This document shows positions 5,834 to 57,048 of a stretch of 64,000 nucleotides of DNA, one piece after another. The translations under genes were made by a program, and so were the position numbers. Each line of letters opens with the position of its first letter. Position 1 is the stretch's first letter. Under the pieces are notes generated by a model, which was not told the DNA's origin, did no database searches, and saw only the letters and a list, made by a program, of their open reading frames with translations. The stretch comes from an uncultured Gammaproteobacteria bacterium (lineage in GTDB: Bacteria > Patescibacteriota > Patescibacteriia > Magasanikbacterales > UBA922), in NCBI GenBank assembly GCA_964550845.1, contig CAZKAD010000001.1:21342-85341 (forward strand), read 5' to 3'.

Positions 5834-7060
5834 ATGGGTGCAATTACATCAAACAATAAATTGACCGCAGCTGGAGCTCTCGATCTACAACAAAAACTTT
5901 ACGAAGTTCGAGAAAGTCTCAAGCAGAAATTCAAATATTCTGAAATTAAGTATTCAGATCTTGCTACAGATCCAGAAATATTTCGACAATATGAGGGTGG
6001 TCGATTCGAAATACATATTTTAGCCACTGTTAATAAGGGAGGAAAACCTTATGTTCTTCACACCCTTCTTCCCGATTTACGTGACGTTGAAGGATACAAG
6101 AATATTTTTTTGAGTTACATTCAAATTATTGAACAAGTTCAGCCTTATGTTTCGAAAACTTATCTCCCGGTGATGAAAGGATGGACTGTTATGAAGTATA
6201 ACATTGACGATCATGATATTTTTCTCCCTGCAATTGTGTATGAACCATTTGTTATAACTGATTCAGTCGCAAGTTGGGAAAGCGCGGAATTAACACCATA
6301 CAGCTGTCAAGATGTTTATCAATTTGCGATTAAATCATTTCAAACTTTGATTGTAACTAGAAATCTAAAAGCAGGTTGTCATTTCTCTCGATTTGCGACT
6401 TTCTTTGCTCTTAATGGAAAAGGACTTGTTATGCTTCCGGGCAAACCTTGTAACCAAGGAGCCAATAAATGTGATCAGGACTATTTTAATGATAAAAGTC
6501 CGGCTGCAATTGATGAAATTAATGATATTACTTATCTACTTATTCAATTGATGGTTGGAAATGGGGCAAATCAGTTCATCCAAAAAATAAGCTCTAACAC
6601 TAATCAAATCAATCAAGGAAAACAATTTCTCTCGCAACATGTTGGAAAACTTTGTCAATTGCTGCTCGAGCCTCTTCTCCAAACCGACATTTCAAATATC
6701 TATACTCCGGAAGCATATCTCGAGTATCTCCGATCGAAACCAGTTCTAGACATGTTCACCAAAGTCAGTGGAATTGAACAGACAGACGAAGATGTGCAAA
6801 AAATTGCCCAAGATCTCGCGCTAATTAAATCTGTAAATCAAACTGCATTTCAAGAATATTGTGGTTCTCGAGAACCTTTGAGAGAAGTACTCCGATCGAT
6901 GTTGAAATGTCTCGGAGAAGCAGACAAAACTTTATCTGCGGATGAAAAAGTCAAATTGATTAAGCAGATGATTTCAGATTCAAAAGTTAATCTTTTTGCC
7001 GTTTGCTACAAAGGCGAGGAACTCGAACAAGAAATATCCAATTTGGCAAACCAAGAATAA
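5834..7060 (+). CDS. hypothetical protein with N-terminal MGAITS (N-myristoylation consensus)
   Basis: First ATG after a TTG-started track ORF. MGxxxS at the N-terminus. No other motifs. Confidence 0.55.
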   Translation: MGAITSNNKLTAAGALDLQQKLYEVRESLKQKFKYSEIKYSDLATDPEIFRQYEGGRFEIHILATVNKGGKPYVLHTLLPDLRDVEGYKNIFLSYIQIIEQVQPYVSKTYLPVMKGWTVMKYNIDDHDIFLPAIVYEPFVITDSVASWESAELTPYSCQDVYQFAIKSFQTLIVTRNLKAGCHFSRFATFFALNGKGLVMLPGKPCNQGANKCDQDYFNDKSPAAIDEINDITYLLIQLMVGNGANQFIQKISSNTNQINQGKQFLSQHVGKLCQLLLEPLLQTDISNIYTPEAYLEYLRSKPVLDMFTKVSGIEQTDEDVQKIAQDLALIKSVNQTAFQEYCGSREPLREVLRSMLKCLGEADKTLSADEKVKLIKQMISDSKVNLFAVCYKGEELEQEISNLANQE

Positions 7061-7115
7061 TAATCTAGCAAAAAATTCAACTTTTTCTTTTTCTTTTCTT
7101 TCCAGAAAAGAAATC

Positions 7116-8768
7116 ATGGCGAATGTAAGTATTTACGATCTTTCTTTCAAAGGAAAGGAAAAACAGACCGGATGGTTTGGAGGAGAAACAATCGCAGAAA
7201 TTGACTCTGGACTCCAAATTACAAGCAAACAAGTCCTTCCGAATGAACAAATCTACAAGGCAGTGAAAAAAGTTCCTTCTGATAAGACTCTTCCAGATGA
7301 CTTTGTTGTCCAAGTTTTTTTTACCTTTGATGAACAAAGCTTTATTCGAAACAAGAATGCTGTCCGAATGATGAAGAAAATCAGTGACAATATGGCACCA
7401 AACGGATTTTATTCAATGCCCTCGTTACCTTTTGTCTATTCTTTCTATCCAAATGATCGTCAAGTGAATCAAAGGACCAATACTACCTACGCAATCATGA
7501 AACCTATCCCAATGTGGAGGCATATTCTCGACACTTCAACGCGAAAATTCCACTGGTTTATGTTCAATGCGCTTTCCACTTTGTTCTATCTTCACAAGCT
7601 CGGAATCATTCACCGAAATATCTCTCCCGACAGTGTCTACTTTGTAACTGACTCGAATGATAATCCTTCGATTTTTATTCATAATTTTGCTTCTGCTTGC
7701 TGGATGAATGATCAAACCGATTTAACCCAGATTGTGAAGTGTAATGAAACTGCTCCACTCCTCGACTACATCGATCCAGTCCTTCTTCCGAAGAGTCGAG
7801 TTCAACTTCAAAAGCTGCAACAACAAGCAGCGAGTAATTTGAGTGAGGCAAGAAAAAAGGAACTTATTGGTCAAATTGACCAGGCTCAGGCAGAATTCAA
7901 TAAGAAAAAGAATGATTTCAATGCGGCTGGAAAAGGAAATCAGATCCAGAATGACCCCAGTATGAAAGTGTTAAGGGAAAAAATTGGTAGATTGAGGGGA
8001 GAACTTGGCGGAGCTCCTCCGCGAGATGTACGTGATAATCAGGCGACTTATGCTCCATTCACTGACAAGTCTGATGTCTACGCAATGGGAATGTTATTTT
8101 ACCAAATTGTGACACAAGGAATTGGTTATGAAAACCAAAATCGTGATCCTTGGGATGAAGCTCTCGCTTCAAATATTGATTTTCCTCAAAATCAAGACAA
8201 GATTTATGCCTCAAGAAAATTGAGATTATCGCGATCAAATCTTGATGCCAGACTCCAAAATTTAATTCTCAAGATGATTCACCCAAATCCAGCACAACGC
8301 TGTGATGCTGAAGAGGGTCTTTTACAATTGATTGTTTCCGCGCCTGGTGCAATTGAGGAAAAAGTTGCCCAATTTAGAATCTCAAATATGGAAGGAGAGC
8401 CACAACGAGCAATTATGAGATTTCTTGGATCTCAATCTCATCCAGAAATTCCCAATTCGAACGAAGGTACGTTGGCTAAAAGAATGCAATTAAAATGGTC
8501 AGACATCGATCAACAAATTCAAAACAGTGAAGAGGCTGCGAATAAGTATGGTTCGATTCGAGAGCGAAAATTTAGTCCTGAACAACAAGGATCTTCATGG
8601 GGACAAGGTTTTTATAAGGCCGGTTTGGCTGCTGCACCTCTCGCAGTACCAGCCGCCGTAGCTGTATTTAATCCATTTGCTGCAGGTGCAATGGTTGCCG
8701 GAGCGGGTTTAATCAAAGTTCACGATCGGTTTCAACAGAAATTGTCACAACGATGGAGAAAAGGATAA
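7116..8768 (+). CDS. divergent protein-kinase-like protein (possible pseudokinase) with coiled-coil and Gly/Ala-rich hydrophobic C-terminus
   Basis: HRNISPDSV in place of HRDLKPxN, NFA in place of DFG, and DVYAMGMLFYQIV like subdomain IX. Upstream hairpin 7089-7112. Confidence 0.55.
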   Translation: MANVSIYDLSFKGKEKQTGWFGGETIAEIDSGLQITSKQVLPNEQIYKAVKKVPSDKTLPDDFVVQVFFTFDEQSFIRNKNAVRMMKKISDNMAPNGFYSMPSLPFVYSFYPNDRQVNQRTNTTYAIMKPIPMWRHILDTSTRKFHWFMFNALSTLFYLHKLGIIHRNISPDSVYFVTDSNDNPSIFIHNFASACWMNDQTDLTQIVKCNETAPLLDYIDPVLLPKSRVQLQKLQQQAASNLSEARKKELIGQIDQAQAEFNKKKNDFNAAGKGNQIQNDPSMKVLREKIGRLRGELGGAPPRDVRDNQATYAPFTDKSDVYAMGMLFYQIVTQGIGYENQNRDPWDEALASNIDFPQNQDKIYASRKLRLSRSNLDARLQNLILKMIHPNPAQRCDAEEGLLQLIVSAPGAIEEKVAQFRISNMEGEPQRAIMRFLGSQSHPEIPNSNEGTLAKRMQLKWSDIDQQIQNSEEAANKYGSIRERKFSPEQQGSSWGQGFYKAGLAAAPLAVPAAVAVFNPFAAGAMVAGAGLIKVHDRFQQKLSQRWRKG

Positions 8769-9275: not shown

Positions 9276-10253
9276 ATGCAACTCCTCGCCGAACCAAAAA
9301 ATAAGTTTGATCTTTTTACCATTAAGTACCCAAAGATTGAAGAGTTTGGTAACAAACAACTTTCAATGATGTGGCTTCCAGGGGAAATTTCATATGATAA
9401 AGATCGTCAGCACTTCGAGGAGTTGAAGGATGAAAGAATTCGTCATATTTTGAAGCGCATTATTGGTTTTTTCTTTACCAGTGATGGAATTGTATTCGCC
9501 AATCTTGATGAAAATTTCACAGAGGAGTTCAAGGCTCCAGAAATGAAATATCTTTTTGCAGCGATTTCAGCAATTGAAAGTATTCATGCAAAGTCGTACG
9601 GATTTCAACTCGATTCTCTAATTACAAATGTTGAAGAGAAACAAGAAATTATGGATGCAATTGTAAATATTCCATCGATTCGGAAGATGGCTGAATTTGC
9701 TATTAAATACATGGACCAGAGTCATCCTCTGGTTAATCGAATGGTTGCTTTTCTTTGTATTGAAGGCATTTTCTTTTCATCGCCATTTGCATTTATCTTT
9801 TGGATTCGAAAGTATATGCCGAAGAAATTCCCTGGAATCGTGGCAGCCAACGATTTTATTTCGAGAGATGAGAATCTCCACTGTGAAGCAAATGCTTACG
9901 TAATTAATCTCTTTGCTGAAGAAGGACAACTTGATTTCAAAAATGCTGAAAAAGTATTCAGAGAAGCGACACAAATTGCAATTGAGTTTGCCGAGGATAC
10001 TTTCCCGAATGATCTTCTCGGAATGACCGCAGCAATGATGATTACTCATATTAAATTTGTTGCCAATCGGTGGGCTCAAATTATCGGTTTGAAACGTCTG
10101 TATGATGAGGCTCAAAAAACTCCTTTTACTTTTATGGATAACATTGCTTTGACCAAGAAAGACAATATGTTTGAATCTCAAACTCTAACTGATTATCAAG
10201 GTGCACCAAATATGGAAGTTCACTTTGATTATTCATCAGCAGAGAACTTCTAA
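9276..10253 (+). CDS. ribonucleotide reductase small subunit (R2)
   Basis: IESIHAKSY, FLCIEGIFFSSPFAFIFW and the RDENLHCEA iron-ligand region. ATG chosen downstream of a GTG-started track ORF. Confidence 0.9.
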   Translation: MQLLAEPKNKFDLFTIKYPKIEEFGNKQLSMMWLPGEISYDKDRQHFEELKDERIRHILKRIIGFFFTSDGIVFANLDENFTEEFKAPEMKYLFAAISAIESIHAKSYGFQLDSLITNVEEKQEIMDAIVNIPSIRKMAEFAIKYMDQSHPLVNRMVAFLCIEGIFFSSPFAFIFWIRKYMPKKFPGIVAANDFISRDENLHCEANAYVINLFAEEGQLDFKNAEKVFREATQIAIEFAEDTFPNDLLGMTAAMMITHIKFVANRWAQIIGLKRLYDEAQKTPFTFMDNIALTKKDNMFESQTLTDYQGAPNMEVHFDYSSAENF

Positions 10254-10317
10254 GATTCGTGAATAAGAAATTACAATCTTTTCGAAAAAAAATAAAATCT
10301 TCCTCATACAAAATCTC

Positions 10318-10518
10318 ATGCATACCCCGATCGCTCTCGTTCTCGCTGTTGCTGCTGCAATCTCGTTGGTGATCAATCTCTATTATGTTGAGAAGGATCC
10401 CGCCAAAGCTAGAAAAGCTTTGATTGCTGCCGTAGTTTTGCTCGCCGTCTTGGCTCTTGTGTTGGTTCACAAGAAGTTCGGTAAGATGATGATGGGTCCT
10501 AGCTATGACATTATGTAA
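10318..10518 (+). CDS. small two-TM membrane protein (66 aa)
   Basis: Two hydrophobic helices. Ala/Leu/Val-rich, locally GC-rich codons. Confidence 0.4.
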   Translation: MHTPIALVLAVAAAISLVINLYYVEKDPAKARKALIAAVVLLAVLALVLVHKKFGKMMMGPSYDIM

Positions 10519-10552
10519 TTAGATATTGAATATTGGATATTGAATATAAATT

Positions 10553-10560
10553 TCGAAAAT
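10553..10560 (+). promoter_or_regulatory. AAAATTGA octamer
   Basis: 70 nt upstream of ATG 10628. Confidence 0.55.
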
Positions 10561-10627
10561 TGATTTCTTAATCAATCAATAATCAAACTTATTAGGAGTT
10601 TGATTATCTTTTCAAAAAGTAAAGGTT

Positions 10628-11158
10628 ATGAATGATGCAGCCAATGATATTTGTATTATTTGTCTGTCTCGCAAAGGTATAGCTAAATATTGTACACATT
10701 TCTATTGTGATATTTGTCTGAGAGAAATGTGCACAATTCGTCTTCAACATCATCAAAAATGTGGATGTGCAATTCCAGGTTGTATTGAATACGACCAAAA
10801 ACAAATTGATGCTATTCTTGACAATGAAGGCAAAACTGCACAAATTGAAGCTTATCTTCGACAACATGGACAAAAATGTACAAAGTGTCACGAATGGGTA
10901 ACCAAAGGTGATGGATGTAACTTTGTTAATTGTCGCTGTGGGTTATCATGGGATTGGCGTCATGGACCTCCAGATTTTGTTAATCAGACTTCTCCCTCTT
11001 CTTGGTGTTTTCGATGGTTTCGAGATGATACAAAAATTTTACTCGGGCAATTAAGTACGACTACGCTCAAAATGATTGAGCAAGAACTTACATTGCATAC
11101 ATCGAATAGAAGAGAATATTCAACTCGAAATATTCTTGAACATCTTAAGAAGTTGTAA
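10628..11158 (+). CDS. RING/IBR (RBR-like) zinc-finger protein, putative E3 ubiquitin ligase
   Basis: CIICL..CTHFYCDICL is RING-like. KCTKCHEWVTKGDGCNFVNCRCG resembles the IBR/Rcat C6HC module. Confidence 0.55.
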   Translation: MNDAANDICIICLSRKGIAKYCTHFYCDICLREMCTIRLQHHQKCGCAIPGCIEYDQKQIDAILDNEGKTAQIEAYLRQHGQKCTKCHEWVTKGDGCNFVNCRCGLSWDWRHGPPDFVNQTSPSSWCFRWFRDDTKILLGQLSTTTLKMIEQELTLHTSNRREYSTRNILEHLKKL

Positions 11159-11160
11159 TT

Positions 11161-11190
11161 CACAAAGTCACCTTCTGAGGTGACTTTGTG
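11161..11190. terminator. perfect 13-bp stem hairpin CACAAAGTCACCT-TCTG-AGGTGACTTTGTG
   Basis: Seen directly after stop 11158. Confidence 0.65.
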
Positions 11191-11265
11191 AAACTCTTTT
11201 TTGAGAAAAATGAGTTTTTTCTTTATCGAGAAGGGAAAATTTGCTCATCAACTTTTCAATCAGAA

Positions 11266-11715
11266 ATGAATCGAAATTTAGAGGCACTCCATCTAAAACC
11301 AACCTCGGCAGGCGTTCTTCTTGTTGCAAAGCATCACATTTTATTCGTCAAAGAAAAATCTTCAGACAAATGGGGACTTCCAAAAGGAAGTATTCAAAAA
11401 GATGAGTCAAAAGTCGATTGCTGGAAAAGAGAATTGAAAGAAGAAACTCAAATCGACATCGATCTTTATAAATATCGTGTTATCTGGAACAAAAGGATTA
11501 ATAGATACATTATTTACACTGTCATTCTATCAATTGACAATGAGACGTTCAACAAAATGAAAGCTCAAGAGTCGAAAAGCGAGGAGATTAACCAAGTTGA
11601 ATGGATCAAGATTGGTGAAATCCCTACTAACGTATACGATTCATTGAATTCAACGGCGAGGACTGCTATTTTTAGTATAAATCATCCATCATCACGCTCT
11701 TTTCGAAGAGAATGA
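11266..11715 (+). CDS. Nudix hydrolase (mRNA-decapping-enzyme-like)
   Basis: Nudix box GSIQKDESKVDCWKRELKEETQI fits Gx5Ex7REUxEE. The track ORF starts at GTG 11188; first ATG used. Confidence 0.7.
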   Translation: MNRNLEALHLKPTSAGVLLVAKHHILFVKEKSSDKWGLPKGSIQKDESKVDCWKRELKEETQIDIDLYKYRVIWNKRINRYIIYTVILSIDNETFNKMKAQESKSEEINQVEWIKIGEIPTNVYDSLNSTARTAIFSINHPSSRSFRRE

Positions 11716-11732
11716 ATCTATCAATTTGAAGA

Positions 11733-11740
11733 AAATTGAT
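11733..11740 (+). promoter_or_regulatory. AAAATTGA octamer
   Basis: 90 nt upstream of ATG 11830. Confidence 0.5.
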
Positions 11741-11829
11741 CTGCAAAAATTAACTTAATATAAAAACCTACCCGAAGGGATCTCGTTTTTCGGTTAAAGA
11801 GTTTTTCACTATTTGTACAGAGTTAAAGA

Positions 11830-12678
11830 ATGGTTCCCGCTCCCTTCAAAAGGTACACCATTACTTTTACTGTGGCAACCAACTGGACTATTAATCATGT
11901 TCTTTTCTTCTGGAAACATGACTTTCCAAAAATACAAGACATGTCAAATGTTCCTCTTGGTACAATTCTTTCATTGAAATACAAAGATGAAAATGGCCAT
12001 GTTCATCATCGAGGTCATGGAAAGAGCAATGATAAATGTTTTTCTAATACTACTTCTGTGAATGTTTTTGTTGGAAAAGTTATCAATGTTAAACTTCCAT
12101 CATTCGGTAAGATTCAAATTACCGGATGTCTCGAGGAGAGTCAAGCATATAAGGGAGTTCATGCAATTTGGAAAGCAATTCAAGCAATCGAAGAAAAGAA
12201 TCCTGGTTTTTGTAAATTACCTCCAGATGAACCACCAAAAATTATTTTCAATCCCGTGATGAACAATGTGAGTGTAAATATTGGTTTTGAAGTGAATCGA
12301 CAAAAGTTACAGACATTCTTGTATAGATGCAAAGAAATGGATTTCATTCTTCCGACCAAAGATGAGAGATATGCAGGAACAAAAGTAGAGACAAAAATTC
12401 AAGACATTTCTCATATTCCGCTGGTTAAACAAAGATTTCTCCAAGGAAAATGGTATTCTTCAAATGCGACCATGAATGACTTTCTAGCTCTCTTGAATGC
12501 AAAAAGTCGAAAAGAAGAGAGTCGAAAGACTCATCAACATGTCATTCTTATTTTTCATTCAGGTAAATTGATTTATATTGCTCCTCGATTTGAACTAATG
12601 CCGAAATTCTATGACTTTTTCCTCAAGCTCCTTCATGAGCATCGAAATGAAATTGAAGAAACTTGTCAAGCGCATTAA
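11830..12678 (+). CDS. hypothetical protein (282 aa)
   Basis: Long ATG ORF whose stop lies in a CATTAAAC context followed by TTAAAC-family repeats. Confidence 0.5.
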   Translation: MVPAPFKRYTITFTVATNWTINHVLFFWKHDFPKIQDMSNVPLGTILSLKYKDENGHVHHRGHGKSNDKCFSNTTSVNVFVGKVINVKLPSFGKIQITGCLEESQAYKGVHAIWKAIQAIEEKNPGFCKLPPDEPPKIIFNPVMNNVSVNIGFEVNRQKLQTFLYRCKEMDFILPTKDERYAGTKVETKIQDISHIPLVKQRFLQGKWYSSNATMNDFLALLNAKSRKEESRKTHQHVILIFHSGKLIYIAPRFELMPKFYDFFLKLLHEHRNEIEETCQAH

Positions 12679-12754
12679 ACTTTAAACCTTAAACTTTAAA
12701 TTCTCCTCAAGATTGATTAAATGTAAAGGATTCTTCTCCTCAAAAGGAAAAGAA

Positions 12755-16274: not shown

Positions 16275-18797
16275 TCAAAATTCATTTTGAATTGGTATCA
16301 CAATCACGGGATCTTTGATTGCAGCCATCTTTAGAATCCGAAGTTGAGACTCAAGATCCTTAATCTTCTTTTCATAATCAAGTTGACGTCGTTTGAAATC
16401 ACTGGTTGTTTCTTGGAGTTTAAGTTGATTATTTTTCAAACCGTCTTCAAGTGTCTTAACATGTTGTTTCTTTCCTTCAAGTTGAGACTTCAGTTCTTCT
16501 TCGACAATCGATAATTTTGAATACTTTTCATGGAGTTGAAGGAGTTCTTCTTTTGTCTTTGTATCTTCCTCGGTTGGTTTCCACGTTTTACTCATATTCT
16601 CACGAAGAGTATTGTTTTCATCACACAAGTTAGCCACTTTACCTCGAAGTCCAATATTTTCTTCTTCTAAAGTTTGAGTTCGAACATTTGCAAATTTAAT
16701 TGCTTGTTCGGCAGTCTCATCTTTCTCTTTTAGCAATAAATCGACTTTACTCAATTGTCCTTCGAGTTGAGCAATTTTATCGAGATAATTTGTTTGATTC
16801 GCTCGAAGAGATTCAATTTCGATTATCTTTTGATTCAAATCATCCTGGCAATGTCGAAGATCATCTCGTGAACGATCCGCAACAGATCGAATATTTTCAA
16901 TTTCATTTTTCACTAATGAAATACTTTTCTGAAGTTCAGTGACTAACGCAGTTTTACTGTCAAGTTCTTCAGCCATCTTTTGGAATTGATCAAGTGATTC
17001 TTCATAATTAGCTGGCGTGAGAGTCGGTTGAACAATCAAATTGTATTCTTTCTTAAAGTCTTTCACATCGATACCTTTCTTTTCACAAAGTTCAATTAGC
17101 TTATTAAGATCTTTAGTCAAAGCTGAAATAATGATTTGTTGAGTAGCAAGTTTTTCATTCGCTTCAAAGAGAAGACGTTTGTATTCTTCAACATTCATTT
17201 CAAGATTAACCACCGGTTTGTTCAAAATGGTTTGAGTAATAGCACCAAATCTCAGCGTTGAAAGAGTTTCTTCATAATTGAATTTCGCAGGTGAACAAGT
17301 AATTACCAAATGAGTTTTACTGTTTCCACCGAGGGAATCGGTCAAAAGACGAGTCAATTTTGAATCTCGATATGGAATGAAACTCTTTTTTTCAGCCAAA
17401 CTTCGAATCACCAATCCAAGAGTCAATAATGATTTGTTAGTTGAACTGGCTTGCTTCAACAGCAATCCTTCAGCCTTTGTTTTCGCTACCTTTTCAGATC
17501 CGGCCAAATCGACAAACACTATTCGCGAGATAATTTTCTTTCCAGTCTTCAGTTCATTTTGTTGAAGATGCATCACCAGTACTGAATGACTTCTCGACGA
17601 ATGAGCGTTCATCGCCGTTTCAGCAACTGTTCGATTCAATTCTCCCTTTCTCATTACACGGACAGCATCTTCAAAACAATTGACATAAGTTTCAGTCACA
17701 TCTTCAATCCATAATCCTCGGAAACGATCCTCACGAATCTTTAGGTCATCGCGAAGAGGTGAGAGCAGATCTCGAATTCGCTCGAGATAAATTTCAACAT
17801 ATGACATGCTAACCAAAAATTCATATCCTTTTTTCCCACGAATCGCGGTAAATAAATCTTTGATTAACCGTGGAACTACACCCATCTCAGTTTCGGTTTT
17901 CCAGAGTTCTCCCTCCTGAGACAGAGCATCGGGATTGTCTACCGATGCAGCGTATCCAGTCATTGTAGTAGTTTTTCCTGAATTATGTGTAATAGTTCCA
18001 TCGGCAAGCAAAAATCGTTCAGGACGATCTTTAATCGGTTCAAGTTGAAATCCTGAATACAACCCCATTCCAACATCTTCAATTTCGAATGAATAAGTTT
18101 CAAGGCCCTTCGAGGCCGGTTCAAGGCCCTTCGGGGTTGGTCCAATTTTCTTATCCTCTTTTCCGATCATTCGAACTCCAAGATAATCTTGTTTATTCTT
18201 TTGTTTCAATAGTTCCTTGACTGACATATCAATCAGCTTTGACTCAAATTGGAGTGTCAAAACGTGATCAAGATTCACCGTGTAAAAACTTTTCTTTTTC
18301 ACATCTCGAATTTTAAACATATGTGAAATTCCAGTAAACAACTTGATCACTTCTCGAACATTTCCTTTTTCGTCAACAAGTTTGTCACCGACTTGAACAT
18401 CTCGTGCTTGAATAATAGATCCATCGATCAGTAAGATTAGTGTCTCAGGAGAAAGGCATCCAGACTGACCATAAGCAAAGATAGTTGCATTGTATCCTTG
18501 AAGAATCTCATCAAGTAAAGGTTTACCAACAGCTTGATATACTTGTTCTTGAGTTGCTTTTTCTTCAAACACTTTGTCGTAATAATATCGATTATCTTTT
18601 ACCTCTTGTGGAAGATTAACAACGTTCCCATTCACCACAATCATTCGATTACCTCCATTTTTTAATTCCGTTTCATTACAAGGGCGAAATCGACAAAAAA
18701 CTTTAACATTTCGATCATCTCTTGGCTCTGTCTCATCCGATTTTTTAGACTCTGGTTTAGACTCTCGGGGAGAAAATGGTTTTGATTTTGCTTTCAT
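16275..18797 (-). CDS. kinesin-like motor protein with coiled-coil tail, interrupted by a mini-intein in the P-loop
   Basis: VKVFCRFRP and IFAYGQSG, then CLSPETLILLIDG...LLADGTITHN, then SGKTTTMTG. Switch I NAHSSRSHS and switch II DLAGSE. About 400 aa of heptad-rich tail. Confidence 0.9.
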   Translation of the reverse strand: MKAKSKPFSPRESKPESKKSDETEPRDDRNVKVFCRFRPCNETELKNGGNRMIVVNGNVVNLPQEVKDNRYYYDKVFEEKATQEQVYQAVGKPLLDEILQGYNATIFAYGQSGCLSPETLILLIDGSIIQARDVQVGDKLVDEKGNVREVIKLFTGISHMFKIRDVKKKSFYTVNLDHVLTLQFESKLIDMSVKELLKQKNKQDYLGVRMIGKEDKKIGPTPKGLEPASKGLETYSFEIEDVGMGLYSGFQLEPIKDRPERFLLADGTITHNSGKTTTMTGYAASVDNPDALSQEGELWKTETEMGVVPRLIKDLFTAIRGKKGYEFLVSMSYVEIYLERIRDLLSPLRDDLKIREDRFRGLWIEDVTETYVNCFEDAVRVMRKGELNRTVAETAMNAHSSRSHSVLVMHLQQNELKTGKKIISRIVFVDLAGSEKVAKTKAEGLLLKQASSTNKSLLTLGLVIRSLAEKKSFIPYRDSKLTRLLTDSLGGNSKTHLVITCSPAKFNYEETLSTLRFGAITQTILNKPVVNLEMNVEEYKRLLFEANEKLATQQIIISALTKDLNKLIELCEKKGIDVKDFKKEYNLIVQPTLTPANYEESLDQFQKMAEELDSKTALVTELQKSISLVKNEIENIRSVADRSRDDLRHCQDDLNQKIIEIESLRANQTNYLDKIAQLEGQLSKVDLLLKEKDETAEQAIKFANVRTQTLEEENIGLRGKVANLCDENNTLRENMSKTWKPTEEDTKTKEELLQLHEKYSKLSIVEEELKSQLEGKKQHVKTLEDGLKNNQLKLQETTSDFKRRQLDYEKKIKDLESQLRILKMAAIKDPVIVIPIQNEF
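17982..18458 (-). mobile_element. mini-intein (159 aa; Cys1 ... His-Asn, +1 Ser) inserted between G and S of the kinesin Walker A GQSG^SGKT
   Basis: Block A CLSPETLILLIDG and terminal THN followed by S. The flanking exteins rejoin to the canonical AYGQSGSGKTTTM. No endonuclease domain. Contains a GC-rich 15-nt duplication (GLEPASKGLE). Confidence 0.8.
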
Positions 18798-18855
18798 CAA
18801 AAGCGATTTCTTTTCTTTTCTTTTCTTTCAGTGGAAAAAAGCTTTCTTTTTCTTG

Positions 18856-47116: not shown

Positions 47117-50100
47117 TTAACAGATCTTGTTTCGAATTCCTTTAACCAAGGGATCATTTGGACCGAAAATTCGGTGAATCACGTTTCCTTGACCAACTCT
47201 TCCGACTGTTTCGTAGTGATTATTGTCTCGATAAGAAACTAACACAATGCTTGGTCTTCCTTCGGTATAACTACAATCAACTGGAATTGGTTTTCCATCT
47301 TCATCAAGCAAATAGATATCATGGCGAATAAATTCAGACAAAATTTCAAGTACTTCGAGACCAACTTCATTGCCACTCGTTCCAAGATTATCAATGAAAT
47401 TTGCATACGCTTCTTGTTCGGCGAGCTCAAAGATTTTCTTCAAATCAAGCAAACCTCCAGCAGACAAATCTTTTCGAAGAGCTTGTAGTTGAAATGTATT
47501 TTCGAGTTCTTTTTTGTAAACTTCGATCATCTTTGATTGAAGAACTTTATCTTGTTCAAGACGAAGTAAATATTTTTCAAGCTGATATTGATTTCCCATC
47601 ATTGCAACCAAATTGGCTCGACGGCCAAGAAAACCTTCGTTTTTATTGGTCAAATAATAGTGAACAATTGAGTCAAAGCCTGGAACTTTTCTTCCAAATC
47701 CCATTCGTGCAATTCTTCCTTCTCCAACTTTCTTCCATTGGGCAATTGGAATGTTGACTGTTTTTCTCCAATTTTTGACGAACTCTTTCTTCTCATCGTC
47801 TTTCATTTTACGATAATCGATACTTAATGCTGTCTGTAAGGCATGGAAGAAATCATTTCCATCTACAAGAGTACCTGTACGAACCAATCCTTTCTCTTCA
47901 AGAACGATACTGTATACTTTATTCTTTCCAGGGTCAATTGGTTGAAGCGCAAGATCTTCTTGGATATTTACTCCACGAGCAAATCCGGTCAACGGATAGT
48001 AACTTTCTCGAACAAAGAGGAAAGATCGATACAGTCGAGCAAGTTGTTGTTCTTCAGGATCGAGCCATATCGGAGGTGAAAAGATCTCACTCTTTTCAAG
48101 TTTGAATCCGATTGTTTTCATTTTGTCGACGAAGTAATCCCAGTCAACAAGATATTCAATTTGCGTCTCAGCGACTGTCTGACTTCCTTTGTATTGATAT
48201 TCAAGTCCCTTGTTAAATAGAATATTTCCGGAAAATGGTTGATACAATCTCTTCAAAGTCACATTTCCAAGCTGGACAATCCCCTTTTCAAGTATTCGCC
48301 GAGTCGCTTGTCCATCAATGGTGGTTCCAAGGAAATATCCATTTTTCTCAACACTTTCATCAAGTGTTTGAAGAAGACCGTTGAGTGGATCTTCGTTTTC
48401 AAAGAAGAATGACAGCACAAAGAATGAAGTGGCAACTTGGACACGAGATCCGCGCAAAGCTTTCACAATTGTTTCAGTATCTTGCGCTCGAGCTTGAATA
48501 TCAATCAAATTTAGTCGTTGATTGCGAAATTCCATTTCGCTTGCTCTTTGTTTCAATTCGAGGAGAAACTCCGGATTTGGTTCAATTGCAATCAGTCTCG
48601 CTACATGAGCAGTGTAATATTTCATCAAATCTCCTCCTTTTCCAGAACCCAGATCAAGGATAGTTCTTTCGGGGCAGTACAGATTAATCAATTCTCGTTT
48701 AATCGTATTGCTAAACTTACGGAAAGCATCTCGATCTGAACTTTGTTTCAAGGCATTAATTAGTTCTTGTTCGGTGAGAGGATTTTGAATATCAATCCAA
48801 ACGTCTTTTGCAATGTCAACGTAATTTGGTTCAGTTTTATCTGGACGTGCCTTCACCAGTTCAAAAGTTCCGTTGTGCCAACGATATTCTCCAATCTTTG
48901 GAGGATAAAATTTGCTGCGAATGGTACCACGAAAGCCAGGAGGTGTAAAATGAATCAAACCATTTTTACCACCAACCATCAAATTGTACATTTCACCATA
49001 GACTTTCACTGCTGCAAAATCAATGGTCAATTCGTGGACTGGTTTCCACTTATAAGTATGGAAATTTAAATAAGGTTCTGCAATTGGAGTGAGAATTAAA
49101 CCATCATAATTAGGATTATTTCGAATCTCGTTCAACAATTGTTCAGTGTCTTCGGCAATTTGATAAGTCATGAAAAATTGTTTCTTAATGATATCAACAT
49201 CACGCAGACTATTGACCAATTGCTCAATGTATTCAAATCTCTTATCAAGAGTCAATTGACGGACATCTCGATCATGAAGGCAAATCATATCAAAGATATG
49301 AACTTGATTCTTAAAGAATTCACAATCAAAGATTGTTCCATCAAGATCTTCACGAATCTTACTTCGAAAGAGTTCGATGTTACCTTTCATTCCAGCCAGA
49401 AAAAGTTTTTGATCTGTAATAATCCCAATCATCCGCACTCCATTTAATTTTTTAGTCACTGCGTAGGCAGAGAGGTTTAAATTCCATCGTTTCAAATTGA
49501 TCGGTTGAGGAAGACCACGTTTGAACAAAACTGATTCGTCGAACTTTGCGCCATCTTGTTGTTTGAAAAAATTATTAAAGAAGCGAAGTGCGACTTTTGT
49601 ATCAACATTAATCTTCTCTTTGAGAGCATCAAAAGAAGCCCAGATCAACTTAAGTGGCATAAAGAAGGTTTTCAAATCAATATTCTTTGAAAAATATTCA
49701 ACTTCAACTTCATAACTCTCTTGAGTTGAAGTCATCTCAATTGAATGTGAAGCATCCTTAGCAAAGAAAGTAACTCGAGATTTTTCACGAGTCATTTGAA
49801 TTGATCCTGGTTCATCTTGAGTAGGTATTTCCTCTGAAGTGACTAAGTCGATCTTAATAGTATATTCTCCTTGAACTCGATCAAACAAAGTGAATCTCGA
49901 CTTCATCATTTTCCTCACTTTGGTTATTGGTACGTTATCAGTTAAAACTTCTTCAATTCGGATATTATTATCTGACAATTGTGCAAATGTCTTGGAAAAT
50001 TTCCCCTGTTGATAGAGATCAGAATCAGTAATAATTTTGAGTAGCCACATCCATCTCTTTTGATCAGCATTCGGAAATCCAGCCTGAGCTTTACCTTGAT

Positions 50101-50239
50101 AAATAAACCCAAGTCGAGCTTCAATCTCGGTATTTGGTTTACCGAGACTTTCTTTCAACACCGATTGAATTCGATTACAAACATCCGGTTGGATGCCAAT
50201 CTTCGAATTCCCGAGGATCTCTGCAGCACATTGATCCAT
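47117..50239 (-). CDS. trifunctional mRNA capping enzyme (triphosphatase, guanylyltransferase, N7-methyltransferase) with extra C-terminal domain
   Basis: TTM motif EIEARLG. GTase motif I as KLNGVR, III DGTIFDCEF, IV DGLILTP, V YKWKP. MTase ILDLGSGKGGDLMKY. C-terminal about 290 aa with a DGNDFFHAL...NNHYE OTU-like pattern. Minus-strand AAAATTGA at 50272-50279, 33 nt upstream of the ATG. Confidence 0.9.
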   Translation of the reverse strand: MDQCAAEILGNSKIGIQPDVCNRIQSVLKESLGKPNTEIEARLGFIYQGKAQAGFPNADQKRWMWLLKIITDSDLYQQGKFSKTFAQLSDNNIRIEEVLTDNVPITKVRKMMKSRFTLFDRVQGEYTIKIDLVTSEEIPTQDEPGSIQMTREKSRVTFFAKDASHSIEMTSTQESYEVEVEYFSKNIDLKTFFMPLKLIWASFDALKEKINVDTKVALRFFNNFFKQQDGAKFDESVLFKRGLPQPINLKRWNLNLSAYAVTKKLNGVRMIGIITDQKLFLAGMKGNIELFRSKIREDLDGTIFDCEFFKNQVHIFDMICLHDRDVRQLTLDKRFEYIEQLVNSLRDVDIIKKQFFMTYQIAEDTEQLLNEIRNNPNYDGLILTPIAEPYLNFHTYKWKPVHELTIDFAAVKVYGEMYNLMVGGKNGLIHFTPPGFRGTIRSKFYPPKIGEYRWHNGTFELVKARPDKTEPNYVDIAKDVWIDIQNPLTEQELINALKQSSDRDAFRKFSNTIKRELINLYCPERTILDLGSGKGGDLMKYYTAHVARLIAIEPNPEFLLELKQRASEMEFRNQRLNLIDIQARAQDTETIVKALRGSRVQVATSFFVLSFFFENEDPLNGLLQTLDESVEKNGYFLGTTIDGQATRRILEKGIVQLGNVTLKRLYQPFSGNILFNKGLEYQYKGSQTVAETQIEYLVDWDYFVDKMKTIGFKLEKSEIFSPPIWLDPEEQQLARLYRSFLFVRESYYPLTGFARGVNIQEDLALQPIDPGKNKVYSIVLEEKGLVRTGTLVDGNDFFHALQTALSIDYRKMKDDEKKEFVKNWRKTVNIPIAQWKKVGEGRIARMGFGRKVPGFDSIVHYYLTNKNEGFLGRRANLVAMMGNQYQLEKYLLRLEQDKVLQSKMIEVYKKELENTFQLQALRKDLSAGGLLDLKKIFELAEQEAYANFIDNLGTSGNEVGLEVLEILSEFIRHDIYLLDEDGKPIPVDCSYTEGRPSIVLVSYRDNNHYETVGRVGQGNVIHRIFGPNDPLVKGIRNKIC

Positions 50240-50354
50240 TGCTTTTATTTCGAGAAAGAAAAAGGAAGATTTCAATTTTCTTTGGAAAAGTGAAAATGGA
50301 TCTTATTTTAGTCTTAATCCTTGAACAGACTTTATATCGAGATTAAGACTAAGA

Positions 50355-52147: not shown

Positions 52148-53866
52148 TTAAAGAAATGAGGCGCAATGTTGCAACTGATCGGCGTTTATTTTTCTTCCAA
52201 CCGCTGCATTTGGAATAGTTTGGAGGTCCATTGGAGGTGCGCTTGGAATTTGAAGTGCTCGAGGGATAAGCTGATCGACTACAGGAGCTGATGTCGGAGT
52301 TGGAGCCATGCTCAGTTGTGGTACACCCGATTGTGATGGAGCCATACTCAACCGACCAGCTTGAGCTGAAGTCATCAAAGGAAAGCCTGGGACACTTCTT
52401 CCGGAACCTTGTGAGACTGACATTGCCCGAACTGAAGATTTGTTCAAACCAAAAGTGGCCTGAAGAGCGGGAGAAACTGAGCTTCTTGCTTTTCTTCGAA
52501 TCGATCGAACCAATGAATCCTTTTTCTTCTTTGAGATATTTTCAATCCCCATTTGCTGAGCAATTTCTTTCAAGTCAGCCACCTTCAATTCTCGAAGCTC
52601 AGTCGTTGAAGGAATCTCCATTGATCGATCGTCAACAATTTTTGGTTGATCGACTACTCCAGCTACACCAATATCCTTGTTGAGCAAAATTCGTCTCAAA
52701 GAGCGAGGAGAATATCTTGAATATCCCCTGACACCTTCAGCCTTGGCGAGCTCTCGAAGGTCACCCACGCTCAGATCTTGAACCACAGATTCGTAATCTC
52801 GGACGTTGTATTTACGTGGTGAAATAGCTCTTACTGATTTCTGTTTGATCTTTTCAATTAAATCAATTTTCTTCAAATCCTTCTCATCGATAACGTTGAG
52901 ATCTTTTGCAATTTTGTGTAGGGCTTTTGCACTCTTCAAACTCAAGTTAACTTCTCCACTTTCATTTCCAATCAACAAAGGTCGTCGAGGGCTCTTCAAT
53001 CCGTAAGGAACATCCGCCTCGGGCAATGATTTGGCGATATCAAGAAACATCTCACGCATGATGGCCAATGCTTCTTTGCGAGATGATCCACTTGGAACCT
53101 TGACACCAATCTTTTTTCCGAAACTCACCATTTCTTTGACCTTCATATCGAGAACATCTTGCCAAGCAATTCCGTCAAGAGACAGATCTTCAACTCTTGG
53201 AGCAACTTTTGATCCTCGCAATTGAGGCAAACTGTTCGGGTCGACTTTGATTCGTTGAGCGAAAGAATTCAAAGCTGCTTGAGAACCATAGACCGGACGA
53301 GAATTGATTTCAACGCGAGCTGAGTCTTTAGGCAAACCTCGAGGAATGTCACAGTCTTGTTTATCAAGATTGCAAATGAGTTCATCACGACATCCGACAA
53401 AGTCACCTTCCGAACTCACATTCAAATTACATTTTTCACTGTCGAGGAAAGCCAACAGAGCACTTCTCAACAATTTCAGATCTCTATCACTGTCACGAAA
53501 TTGGGAATATCCAGGCATATTCACTTTCTTCGCAATTTCCTTCAGGCCTGAGATATAAGGTTCTTCGATAATTTTTTGTCTCATCACTGCACGTCGACCT
53601 TGTTTGGTTCGGCTTTCTTTTTGTTCTGCGCGTCCAGAAACAAACGATTTGGCTGCGAGAAGAGTTTCACGCATCACTTCTCTTTTTTGAGATGGAGTTC
53701 GATATTTCCGATTCAATTCAGCCAAGCAGCTTTCATCACAACTTTCGATTGCGAGGAGAAATTGTTTCCAAATTTGATCTACTTCCTCTGATTCGAGGTA
53801 AAGAATATCGTTCGGGGTTGCGACTTTAGCAAATCTTGATTCAGGATCTAAGCGAATGTTCGACAT
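52148..53866 (-). CDS. GC-rich protein with about five SAP/Rho-N-like helix-extended-helix motifs and a Pro/Ala/Ser-rich tail
   Basis: Repeats such as LRELAKAEGVRGYSRYSPRSLRRIL and LKEIAQQMGIENISKKKKDSLVRSI. About 48% GC versus about 35% for the window. Confidence 0.6.
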   Translation of the reverse strand: MSNIRLDPESRFAKVATPNDILYLESEEVDQIWKQFLLAIESCDESCLAELNRKYRTPSQKREVMRETLLAAKSFVSGRAEQKESRTKQGRRAVMRQKIIEEPYISGLKEIAKKVNMPGYSQFRDSDRDLKLLRSALLAFLDSEKCNLNVSSEGDFVGCRDELICNLDKQDCDIPRGLPKDSARVEINSRPVYGSQAALNSFAQRIKVDPNSLPQLRGSKVAPRVEDLSLDGIAWQDVLDMKVKEMVSFGKKIGVKVPSGSSRKEALAIMREMFLDIAKSLPEADVPYGLKSPRRPLLIGNESGEVNLSLKSAKALHKIAKDLNVIDEKDLKKIDLIEKIKQKSVRAISPRKYNVRDYESVVQDLSVGDLRELAKAEGVRGYSRYSPRSLRRILLNKDIGVAGVVDQPKIVDDRSMEIPSTTELRELKVADLKEIAQQMGIENISKKKKDSLVRSIRRKARSSVSPALQATFGLNKSSVRAMSVSQGSGRSVPGFPLMTSAQAGRLSMAPSQSGVPQLSMAPTPTSAPVVDQLIPRALQIPSAPPMDLQTIPNAAVGRKINADQLQHCASFL

Positions 53867-53933
53867 CGTCTTTTGGGTAGCGATTTAATTTCTAGAAATA
53901 ATTTTTGAAGATTTGAATTTTTCTTCGGGGGAG

Positions 53934-54000
53934 ATTAAACGTCCCGAAGGACTGATTAAACGTCCAAAGGACTGATTAAACGTCCCGAAGGACTGATTAA
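53934..54000. repeat. 3 x 21-bp tandem repeat ATTAAACGTCCCGAAGGACTG
   Basis: Units contain GTCC-cgaa-GGAC. The array abuts the RPB1 promoter. Confidence 0.85.
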
Positions 54001-54008
54001 AAAATTGA
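54001..54008 (+). promoter_or_regulatory. AAAATTGA octamer for RPB1
   Basis: 50 nt upstream of ATG 54051. Confidence 0.6.
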
Positions 54009-54050
54009 TGAAACTTTTCAATCTCTCTTTGAAAAAGATATAGATATCCA

Positions 54051-56987
54051 ATGCAGATTGGAGAGGTGGTTGTACGTCTCCTATCACCAGAAGAAATATG
54101 TGCCTTTTCTGTTTGTGAGGTAAAGTATGAGAAGATTCGAAAGAACGATGATAATACTGAAACTCCAGCTGATCCAAGACTTGGAACTCTTGATGAAACA
54201 CCATGCAAAACATGTGGATGTGAATTTCGAGACTGTCCAGGGCACTTTGGTCATATTGTACTTGCAACGCCTATCATTCATCCTCTTGATCGATTTCCGA
54301 TTATTACGGCCGAACTTCTTTCTTGTTTTTGTAGCAATTGTTGTAGATTGCTAGTAACCCGAGAGATGTTAATGATTGAGCGAATAGGTAAATTGCAGAA
54401 AAATAAACGTCTCGCTAAAATCGTAGCTCTTTGTACGAAAATGGGTATTTGTTATCACTGTAATCAAAAAACATTGAAATATAAGCTTGATACCAGCTCG
54501 GGAAGAGCCAAAATCTATTCTCAAATAAAAACGATCACCGGAAACGATGATACCCCAGTTGAGATTCCCGTTGAACAAATTTACAACATTTTCTCCAGAG
54601 TCTTAGATGATGATCTTAAATTGCTTGGAATCAATCCAAAACAATTTCATCCCAAGAATTTGATTATACGTATCTTACCTGTATTGCCATTGAAAACAAT
54701 GCCTTATATTGTTACAGATAATGAAAAGAGAGAAGATGATTTAATGACTTTCTATCGAAATATCCTTAAGGTTAATTCAAGAATTCTTTCTCATTCATAT
54801 GTTGATCTTGACAAAGAGATTAGCAGTCTTGTCTTTTACATCAGTAATTTTATGGATAATTCAAAAAAGAAAGTTCGCCAACCGAACGGAAGAGCACATA
54901 AATCACTTCGTGAACTTCTTTCAAGTAAAAAAGGTCTACCCCGTATGTGCCTCCTTGGTAAAAGAGTGCACTATTCAAGTCGTACTGTAATTGGAGGTGA
55001 TCCAACTCTTGCGACTGACGAAATCTTTATTCCAAATTGCATTGCTTCAACTGTTTCTGTTCCAGAAACAGTCACTTCGTTCTCAAAAACCAAGCTTGAA
55101 GCACTGTTGAATAAGGGAGAGATTAATTTTATCTCTCGAATCGAGAATGGAACGAAGCGTGTACTCAATCCAAGAATTGCAACCAAAACACAAGGAACAA
55201 TCTTACTTCCGGGTGACAGAGTCTTTCGAAATGAGGTTGAAGTTAAACTTCAACGGAGCGGAGATTTACGCCAAGGAGATCGAATTGTCCGAAAAGTGCT
55301 TAAAAATGGTCAAACAATTGAAGAAACTCTACACGCCGAAGAACCAAAGAAAAGATCTTTCCTTCTTCATGATGGAGATATTGCCCATCGATGGTTACAG
55401 AATGGAGACTGGGTGATTGTCAATCGACAGCCTTCTCTTCATGCTCAATCAATGCTTGGACTCAAAGTAAAACGAACCAATCAGAAACCTGGGAAATATA
55501 CATTTGAAGAACGATCAATTCGTCTTCCTCCAGATGCAATTACTCCTTTGAATGCAGATTTTGATGGTGATGAAAGTAATGTTCACAATCCACAAAATTT
55601 AATGGCAAAATCAGAATATGCAGTTTTAATTAACATTGCTAACAACATTATTGCGAATCAATCTTCAAGACCTTTGATTGGATTGGTGCAAGATGCTCTG
55701 ATTGGATGTTGGAAAATGACACAAGGATGGGTCCCAATTCCAGTCAGCTTGTTTCAAGATATGATTGTCACTGCAAATATCAGTCTTGAGAGAATTGATC
55801 AAGTCCGGCAAGTATATCAAAGGATTTTCGGCGATGGAGATAAATATCTCTATACTGGAAGAGGTATATTGTCGACTGCATTGCCAATTACTTTCAATTA
55901 TAGCTCAAAGAGCAAATCTTATAACTCAGAATCTCTTCAAATTGAAAGAGGTGTAATAATTTCTGGAGCTTATGGAAAAAGCTCGGTTGGAAATCGAAAC
56001 GGAGCAATCCATCATTTTCTCCGAGAAAAAGAAGCGATTCAATTTCTGACTAAAACTCATACTCTTGCTTACGCGTGGGTAGTTCAAAATGCAATCGGTG
56101 TTGGATTATCTGATTGTATTCCTCCGATTGTAGATAACTTCGGAATGATTCCACAAGCGCGCGAACATATTGAAGCAAGTTATCTGAATGCTGTCATTTC
56201 AGAAGAAATTATTTCAGGACGAATCGCGGAACTCTCAGTTTGTCGCGTCTTGAATAATGCTCGTAATGTTGGTCACAAGATTGCCAGTGAATTGATCGGA
56301 AATTCAAATCGAATCAAGCAAATGATTGATGCCGGGTCAAAAGGATCAATGAACAATTTGACTCAAATCATGGTAGCACTTGGACAAAACACCGTGTACA
56401 ACAGACGAATTCCAATGACAAATATTGATGGACTTCGTACATTGCCACATTTTTCAGCCAATAAAGATAATCTGGCTAAAAAATATGAAGAAAGAGGTTT
56501 TATTGATACTTCGTTCTTCAATGGATTGAATCCAATCCAATTCTTTAATCACGCCCAAACCGGCCGTGAAGGTATTGTTAATACCGGTGTCACTACTCGA
56601 GGTTTCGGATACATTCAGAGAAAACTCACTGCATTGTTGAAGAATATCACTATTGCTCAAGATTTTACTGTTCGAGATTGTGGAACAAATCAAATTGTTC
56701 AATTCATTTATGGAGAATTTGGTTTTGCTCCTTCGAAACAAAATCGAGATAAAGGTCAACTTTATGTTGATATCACGACAGCAATTGATAAAATTACAAT
56801 CGAATATGAACTTAAGCATCAGATTGAAGAAATTTCACTCTCAGAACAACAGAAGAGAGATGCTCAAGAAGAAATTGAAGCTGATCGAATCTCGATTGCA
56901 TCAGGTGCAAGTGATAATGATGGTTCTGCCTCAGAAGATTCTATCTCCAACGCAAGTGGAGATGAAAATGATTTTGATGACTTTTAA
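54051..56987 (+). CDS. DNA-directed RNA polymerase largest subunit (RPB1), N-terminal about 65% only
   Basis: N-terminal Zn site C..C...CPGHFGH, catalytic NADFDGDE, bridge helix TGREGIVNTGVTTRGFGYIQRKL. Ends after the bridge helix with an acidic/Ser tail. No trigger-loop or C-terminal domains. Confidence 0.9.
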   Translation: MQIGEVVVRLLSPEEICAFSVCEVKYEKIRKNDDNTETPADPRLGTLDETPCKTCGCEFRDCPGHFGHIVLATPIIHPLDRFPIITAELLSCFCSNCCRLLVTREMLMIERIGKLQKNKRLAKIVALCTKMGICYHCNQKTLKYKLDTSSGRAKIYSQIKTITGNDDTPVEIPVEQIYNIFSRVLDDDLKLLGINPKQFHPKNLIIRILPVLPLKTMPYIVTDNEKREDDLMTFYRNILKVNSRILSHSYVDLDKEISSLVFYISNFMDNSKKKVRQPNGRAHKSLRELLSSKKGLPRMCLLGKRVHYSSRTVIGGDPTLATDEIFIPNCIASTVSVPETVTSFSKTKLEALLNKGEINFISRIENGTKRVLNPRIATKTQGTILLPGDRVFRNEVEVKLQRSGDLRQGDRIVRKVLKNGQTIEETLHAEEPKKRSFLLHDGDIAHRWLQNGDWVIVNRQPSLHAQSMLGLKVKRTNQKPGKYTFEERSIRLPPDAITPLNADFDGDESNVHNPQNLMAKSEYAVLINIANNIIANQSSRPLIGLVQDALIGCWKMTQGWVPIPVSLFQDMIVTANISLERIDQVRQVYQRIFGDGDKYLYTGRGILSTALPITFNYSSKSKSYNSESLQIERGVIISGAYGKSSVGNRNGAIHHFLREKEAIQFLTKTHTLAYAWVVQNAIGVGLSDCIPPIVDNFGMIPQAREHIEASYLNAVISEEIISGRIAELSVCRVLNNARNVGHKIASELIGNSNRIKQMIDAGSKGSMNNLTQIMVALGQNTVYNRRIPMTNIDGLRTLPHFSANKDNLAKKYEERGFIDTSFFNGLNPIQFFNHAQTGREGIVNTGVTTRGFGYIQRKLTALLKNITIAQDFTVRDCGTNQIVQFIYGEFGFAPSKQNRDKGQLYVDITTAIDKITIEYELKHQIEEISLSEQQKRDAQEEIEADRISIASGASDNDGSASEDSISNASGDENDFDDF

Positions 56988-56996
56988 CAAATTTTT

Positions 56997-57018
56997 TATT
57001 TACTCCGAGGAGTAAATA
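56997..57018. terminator. hairpin TATTTACTCC-GA-GGAGTAAATA
   Basis: Perfect 10-bp stem after the RPB1-fragment stop. Confidence 0.6.
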
Positions 57019-57048
57019 ATTAATAATTATCGGATATCGATTATTAGC

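Follow-up and report, generated by a model that had tools for sequence, protein, structure and literature searches.

An RPB1 gene that ends between the bridge helix and the trigger loop in an uncultured giant virus, and the probable two-gene makeup of its largest RNA polymerase subunit

The largest subunit of multisubunit RNA polymerases is in several systems divided between two genes. In archaea two genes are usual, and the two polypeptides, Rpo1N (A′) and Rpo1C (A″), are cut between the bridge helix and the trigger loop and encoded next to each other in N-then-C order (as in L143, L146, L148 and L152). The beta′ subunit of cyanobacteria and chloroplasts is split as rpoC1 and rpoC2, again from adjacent genes, but cut at a different place. 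Among viruses, the core-gene table of invertebrate iridescent virus 6 (IIV-6) gives the largest subunit as two open reading frames (ORFs), 176R and 343L (PMC1783846), and ascoviruses have ORFs that match these two separately (DpAV4a 89/70, SfAV1a 8/67, HvAV3e 11/82 and TnAV2c 42/110), while IIV-3 has a single ORF, 90L, instead (PMC2712680). In the Marseilleviridae an N-terminal and a separate C-terminal RPB1 ORF are adjacent, with a group I intron between them and one mRNA (PMC5413956). A split RPB1 is already on record, in IIV-6 and the ascoviruses, and is common in related viruses; in the literature we found no paper that explicitly discusses the site of the RPB1 cut in giant viruses. Here we describe one more case, in a stretch of 64,000 nucleotides (contig CAZKAD010000001.1, positions 21,342 to 85,341; hereafter the window) which is part of the genome of an uncultured giant virus (Nucleocytoviricota). 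The gene in question, at 54051-56987, had been read in an initial annotation, made from the letters alone, as an RPB1 encoded only through the bridge helix. Our analysis makes it highly probable that it is a complete and independent gene for the N-terminal piece of a two-gene largest subunit, whose partner would lie elsewhere in the genome and join it by non-covalent assembly.

The gene and its landmarks are the following:
54051..56987, + strand: gene for the N-terminal piece of a split RPB1, equivalent of archaeal Rpo1N/A′; ATG start, 978 amino acids (aa) plus TAA, from the ORF listing
54204..54245, + strand: Zn1 site, C52-x2-C55-x6-C62-x2-H65, from the translation; residues invariant in the clade alignment (A1)
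55551..55574, + strand: catalytic Mg-binding motif NADFDGDE, aa 501-508, from the translation
56538..56648, + strand: bridge helix, aa ~830-866, FFNHAQTGREGIVNTGVTTRGFGYIQRKLTALLKNI, aligned with yeast Rpb1
56739..56810, + strand: last homologous stretch, aa ~897-920, stopping at the split point, from the archaeal alignments and the ends of homologues
56811..56984, + strand: clade-specific Ser/Asp-rich tail, aa 921-978, ending ...ENDFDDF, kept in P0002-P0011 and P0123

The Pfam profiles place the first four domains of the subunit in order, Rpb1_1 (aa 2-299, E 1.5e-50), Rpb1_2, Rpb1_3 (aa 532-689) and Rpb1_4 (aa 728-818), with 172.8, 118.3, 58.2 and 55.1 bits against gathering cut-offs of 39.7, 25.3, 28.9 and 24.8, respectively. 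The match to Rpb1_5 is confined to aa 825-889, that is, to positions 1-64 of a profile of 267. The Zn2 cysteines (C92, C94, C97, C134 and C137) are present and fall in invariant columns of the clade alignment, as do N501, D503, D505, G506, D507 and E508 of the catalytic motif, and the bridge helix can be aligned residue for residue with the yeast and S. pombe Rpb1 as far as position 874/880. The N-terminal Zn site, NADFDGDE and bridge helix reported by the initial annotation are thus all borne out by the translation and by these alignments. The same is true of its statement that the trigger loop and the C-terminal regions are absent from the window. Indeed, when ten full-length RPB1s were searched against the window with tblastn, only their N-terminal ~890 residues matched, and a profile hidden Markov model (HMM) of the last ~480 positions of 15 full-length RPB1s gave a best E-value of 0.28 over all 1075 six-frame stop-to-stop fragments of at least 30 aa.

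The ORF has 871 homologues at E<=1e-10. Among solved structures the best match is the Pol II Rpb1 (6e-107), followed by archaeal Rpo1N/A′ chains (5e-89 to 1e-78), so that by sequence the N piece is nearer to the eukaryotic subunit than to archaeal A′. The full-length RPB1s of giant viruses (P0025, P0038, P0061 and P0086, together with those of African swine fever virus, 8q3b, and vaccinia, rpo147, 6rfl) have domains 1-4 and the bridge helix in common with it, at 29-35% identity, but unlike the window N piece they run on for a further 420-520 aa in the same ORF. As a stand-alone ORF of about 1000 aa, the gene resembles IIV-6 176R and may represent the same type of split. No protein named as iridovirus or ascovirus occurs among the 120 best matches of the N piece, while eukaryotic Pol II subunits at 29-30% identity do, and the virus is therefore probably not a close relative of the iridoviruses. 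Within the ORF, Pfam detects no Hint or homing-endonuclease family that would denote an intein; inteins are carried by some of its homologues (P0034, P0036 and P0047). An AlphaFold2 model of the N piece, built on an 11-sequence alignment, was poor (mean pLDDT 44.6, pTM 0.26).

Where does the polypeptide stop with respect to the archaeal one? Residue 897 of the window protein aligns with residue 860 of the 880-aa Sulfolobus Rpo1N (2pmz_A, 2waq_A), and residue 901 with residue 886 of the 906-aa Thermococcus A′ (4qiw_A). The homology among viral N pieces stops at ~aa 920, and most split homologues end 0-20 aa from this point of the query. Together, these alignments put the cut no more than a few residues from the archaeal A′/A″ boundary, in the stretch that separates the bridge helix from the trigger loop. 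The viral form would then be, like the archaeal one, a pair of polypeptides divided between these two elements. It differs in that the window gene has no C piece next to it, and in that the N piece carries an additional conserved acidic tail as compared with archaeal A′.

The missing half can be seen in other giant viruses. In L006 (GVMAG-S-3300010158-109, IMG/VR), a C piece of 543 aa (6864-8495) matches archaeal A″/Rpo1C through its last residues, and has a further match in the trigger-loop region of bacterial beta′. In Pfam domain 5 the two kinds of piece complement each other, with profile positions 1-64 in the N piece and 34-261 and 62-263 in C pieces. The L006 N piece (9971-12697) follows 1.5 kb downstream on the same strand, past a thymidine kinase gene, an order that is the reverse of the archaeal one; in a second virus bin, GVMAG-M-3300023184-134, the N and C pieces come from separate contigs. 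Such an arrangement is widespread. Among the closest N-part homologues with near-full coverage, 85 of 115 are split and end at the same point. With the L006 C piece as query, 1635 relatives scored at E<=1e-5, and the 120 C-piece relatives among the matches listed all consist of domain 5 only (349-903 aa, some with inteins); of the 150 best 50%-identity cluster representatives, 149 are devoid of the N-terminal 800 aa.

The end of the ORF is conserved well beyond the window. In its 90%-identity cluster, whose members come from NCBI, Logan and ENA assemblies, 11 of 12 proteins are 978-980 aa long, the twelfth being a 100-aa ENA fragment. L005 (96% identity) and L001-L004 (68%) have the TAA stop and the neighbouring genes of the window, in a common gene order that includes the Rho_N gene, the RPB1 N piece, the helicase and the DUF5757 gene. 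A further eight relatives, at 35-42% identity, can be aligned to the very end of the ORF, and the same stop, length and tail recur in each of the eleven members of the wider clade, at identities as low as 35%. The codon differences from L005 are 302 synonymous and 42 non-synonymous in the enzyme body, and 17 synonymous and 2 non-synonymous in the last 58 codons. The latter ratio shows that the tail is translated and constrained, under purifying selection.

These data bear directly on the alternative of an artefactual or decaying ORF, in which a frameshift, a premature stop or a misassembly has truncated a full-length RPB1. We regard this as extremely unlikely. Nothing favors it beyond the fact that the ORF is shorter than full-length RPB1s. 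The same end point is found in independent NCBI, Logan, ENA and JGI assemblies, no homology appears downstream in the other frames, and the substitution pattern is that of a constrained gene in both body and tail. The sharing of stop, length and tail by the cluster and the relatives therefore excludes a frameshift or assembly error, including the sequencing frameshift near 56900 which the initial annotation had put forward as an alternative. As judged from the sequences compared, the truncation is genuine and the ORF is neither an error nor a pseudogene.

The tail itself had been described as a non-homologous Ser/Asp extension. Its Ser/Asp character is confirmed, but it is not simply non-homologous, as it is conserved across the virus's own clade, where the consensus comprises SP/TP motifs and a terminal D-F/Y-D-F/Y-D-D. 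The L006 lineage does not have it, and its N piece ends ...QYELNAK. The acidic, aromatic-ended tails of the bacterial single-stranded DNA-binding protein (SSB) and of phage T7 gp2.5 dock partner proteins, and the D-F-D-D-F end of the viral tail brings them to mind. By this analogy, the tail may be a candidate docking element for the C piece or for transcription/capping factors.

Three further features delimit the transcription unit:
54001..54008, + strand: promoter-like motif AAAATTGA, 43 nt before the ATG, recognized by its enrichment ahead of ORF starts
56996..57019, no strand assigned: palindromic hairpin between two convergent stop codons, TTATTTACTC-CGAG-GAGTAAATAA
57049..57642, - strand: convergent 197-aa ORF closing the transcription unit, with no Pfam family and with an L005 homologue at 74% identity

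The AAAATTGA motif is found 40 times in the window, against 25.9 +/- 5 expected. Twenty-three of these 40 copies fall in the 100 nt that precede an ATG ORF of 100 aa or more on the same strand, a location for which only ~6% of positions qualify. The sites include 1447, 2762 (before the family B DNA polymerase gene, PolB), 29447, 32215, 37714, 39981, 54001 and 57696 (before the helicase gene). It is likely a promoter motif, and we take it to be the same octamer as the mimivirus early promoter.

At the other end, the hairpin begins nine bases past the N-piece stop. It has an AT-rich stem of 10 bp and a loop of 4 nt (-11.3 kcal/mol, z = -3.0), and it is identical in L005, while L001 has a different hairpin (TCCCC-GT-GGGGA) at the same position. 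A canonical hairpin terminator followed by a convergent gene had been proposed here. The hairpin and the convergent ORF are indeed present, but we rejected a canonical bacterial terminator at 56996-57019, as there is no T-run and an intrinsic-terminator scan does not call the hairpin. The structure resembles instead the hairpins found at giant-virus 3′ ends, which follow a 'hairpin rule' (PMC5413956), and is probably the 3′-end signal of both convergent genes.

Upstream, the intergenic region between the RPB1 N piece and the divergent Rho_N gene contains a 21-nt tandem repeat of 3.3 copies (53933-54001). Its core, GGACTGATTAAACGTCC, recurs at 59528-59566 and at 34469, both intergenic, giving 5 matches with at most 2 mismatches where 0.03 are expected. 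The divergent gene (52148-53866, - strand) encodes a Rho_N (SAP-like) protein of 572 aa, and its pairing with the N piece is kept in L001 and L005.

Could the C-terminal part be an exon of the same gene? Introns are known in giant viruses (PMC7136201), and an interrupted single gene, with a group I intron as in the Marseilleviridae, a spliceosomal intron or trans-splicing, would yield a mature mRNA for a full-length RPB1. We consider this very improbable. In the Marseilleviridae the C-terminal ORF adjoins and the intron is recognizable by Rfam, whereas in the window an unrelated convergent ORF stands in its place, and a permissive Rfam scan of 53500-58500 (E<=1) found no group I or other intron, only two matches at chance level. 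The window contains no C-terminal exon in any frame, and the profile HMM detects no C-terminal homology in any frame within 10 kb on either side of the gene in six related viruses. An intron joining 56987 to a downstream exon, the second alternative raised by the initial annotation, is thus excluded for the window and for these flanks. Moreover, 58 codons past the end of the homology are conserved with their stop codon under purifying selection, and a conserved hairpin and a convergent gene come directly downstream. Finally, as the L006 C piece is upstream of the N piece, ordinary cis-splicing cannot join the two.

The reading that we prefer, a largest subunit made from two genes, can be spelled out as follows. 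The ORF at 54051-56987 would be a complete, independently transcribed gene for a polypeptide of ~112 kDa that contains the clamp and the Zn sites, the active-site loop with NADFDGDE, the funnel and also the bridge helix. What is left of the subunit, 430-560 aa with the trigger loop, the remainder of the cleft/jaw and the last part of Pfam domain 5, would be supplied by a second gene, located outside the window; PolB (P0398, 100% identity) and the RPB1 N piece (P0510) of this genome are on record as parts of an NCBI contig of 259,314 bp. Inside the multisubunit enzyme the two polypeptides would be joined non-covalently, by analogy with archaeal Rpo1N (A′) and Rpo1C (A″). We infer a C-piece gene in this genome because the C-terminal part is universally conserved and because stand-alone C pieces exist in neighboring lineages. 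The presumption of the initial annotation that the enzyme is assembled from two separately encoded pieces is in this respect supported by the conserved truncation, the lack of an intron and the separate C genes of relatives.

Several points nevertheless weigh against this two-gene reading. The assembly of the two polypeptides is argued by analogy only, and no C piece is present in the window, which extends 54 kb upstream and 7 kb downstream of the N-piece gene, nor in any readable DNA of the virus's own clade, which covers only a fraction of each genome. In the P0002 virus (the 68% relative), none was found within 10 kb on either side of the RPB1 N piece or, going by the Pfam labels of called genes only, in the 10 kb upstream of PolB. 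The same holds for the P0121 virus from -10 to +19 kb, for the flanks of the P0008, P0010, P0005 and P0003 loci searched with the profile HMM, and for the JGI contig Ga0209770_10000020, extended to 38 kb via leucine-rich repeat (LRR) paralogues. The clade was not found in IMG/VR in scans with P0121 and a clade-specific N-piece motif, and it was not matched in a scan of GTDB genomes with a trigger-loop DNA pattern, where the only matches were archaeal A″ genes and C pieces of giant viruses from other lineages that had been mis-binned. Lastly, the search for C-piece representatives yielded a star-like diversity at 35-47% identity in which the window clade is not separable.

The failure to find a C piece in the readable DNA of the clade is also what could be expected if the lineage had no virus-encoded C piece at all, either working without a trigger loop or relying on the host for that part or for the whole late function. 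We give this alternative only a slim chance, as only part of each genome is readable. As far as is known, no multisubunit RNA polymerase does without the trigger loop and the C-terminal cleft/jaw. Every related lineage that can be checked has a stand-alone C piece, and the strong purifying selection on the N piece fits a working enzyme.

Some other loci came to light in these searches. Stand-alone C pieces of the giant-virus type occur in GTDB genomes (L147, L145/L149, L151 and L154), on contigs labeled, as metagenome-assembled genomes (MAGs), Methanobacteriota archaeon BH3, 'bacterium WB9_2_064', Spirochaetia MS495-79 and Rhodospirillaceae MED674; mis-binning of viral contigs is the probable cause. 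We tried to add L092, L093 and L147 to the window clade and rejected them, as the flanks share only a weak match to a dual-specificity phosphatase domain; L147 is 53% identical to another lineage and does not belong to the window clade. According to its gene table, the contig of P0244 (JGI 3300059473, 78.7 kb) has a split RPB2 too, in genes of 735 and 329 aa separated by a 264-aa gene, with a stand-alone RPB1 C piece ~1.4 kb away. In the opposite sense, a Woesearchaeota MAG contig (L144, CAYICV010000063.1, 536-4018, - strand) has A′-like and A″-like parts in one frame of 1161 aa, which would be a fused largest subunit in an archaeon. L001 and L002 (ENA NODE_21 and NODE_78), two independent assemblies of the 68% relative, both stop at the same point past the RPB1 N piece, 12,469 bp downstream of the locus, and the identity of this distance suggests a genome terminus or a repeat boundary.

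How the split arose is a separate question. In a rough neighbor-joining (NJ) tree the window clade is monophyletic and all its members are split. The full-length P0025, the P0038/P0061 group and the P0086 group sit among split forms in this tree, which is unsupported, and the subunit has therefore switched between split and fused forms more than once, by fission or by fusion. One possibility is that the cut at the A′/A″ boundary, instead of being a secondary fission that recurred, is ancestral in a large part of the Nucleocytoviricota, inherited from an archaeal-type polymerase that preceded the fusion, so that the nested full-length RPB1s would be secondary fusions. The use of the same residue window for the cut in many deep lineages is compatible with this scenario, as are the 149 of 150 stand-alone C representatives and the scattered full-length forms of the unsupported tree, but we consider it unlikely.

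The window carries a number of further genes, two of which serve as landmarks:
2824-5781: family B DNA polymerase, 985 aa, no intein
47117-50275: capping enzyme/methyltransferase

The other genes encode the small subunit of ribonucleotide reductase, an XPG nuclease, an RNase H, a dual-specificity phosphatase, the Rho_N-domain protein, a SNF2-type helicase, a DUF5757 protein, several Ser/Thr kinases and a kinesin. The Rho_N-domain gene invites a comparison with the ranaviruses, which also have a Rho-domain protein, associated with the transcription and replication machinery (PMC8734342). The kinesin (16275-18800, - strand, 841 aa; Pfam Kinesin 3.7e-95) is virus-encoded and carries in its P-loop a mini-intein of ~165 aa (FAYGQSG / CLSPETL...DGTITHN / SGKTTTM), with a Hint domain, Cys as its first residue, His-Asn as its last ones and Ser at position +1. 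PolB is without an intein in the window, whereas a 95% identical PolB from another sample (P0399) is 1465 aa long and has one, so that close strains differ in whether they carry the intein. PolB with inteins is also found in L135.

In conclusion, our study does not overturn the current understanding. What may be less appreciated is that the cut agrees with the archaeal one at the level of residues, that split forms are so prevalent among metagenomic giant viruses, and that this clade has a conserved acidic tail of its own. In practice, the 978-aa ORF should be annotated as a complete gene and not as a fragment, and RPB1 can serve as a phylogenetic marker only once the partner has been located and concatenated with it. 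Concatenation of split genes is already part of pipelines for giant-virus marker genes (PMC7136201). On the side of the biology, a deep uncultured lineage of giant viruses is added to those with a catalytic subunit in two polypeptides, and a cut at the site that archaea also use marks a naturally permissive break point in the enzyme.

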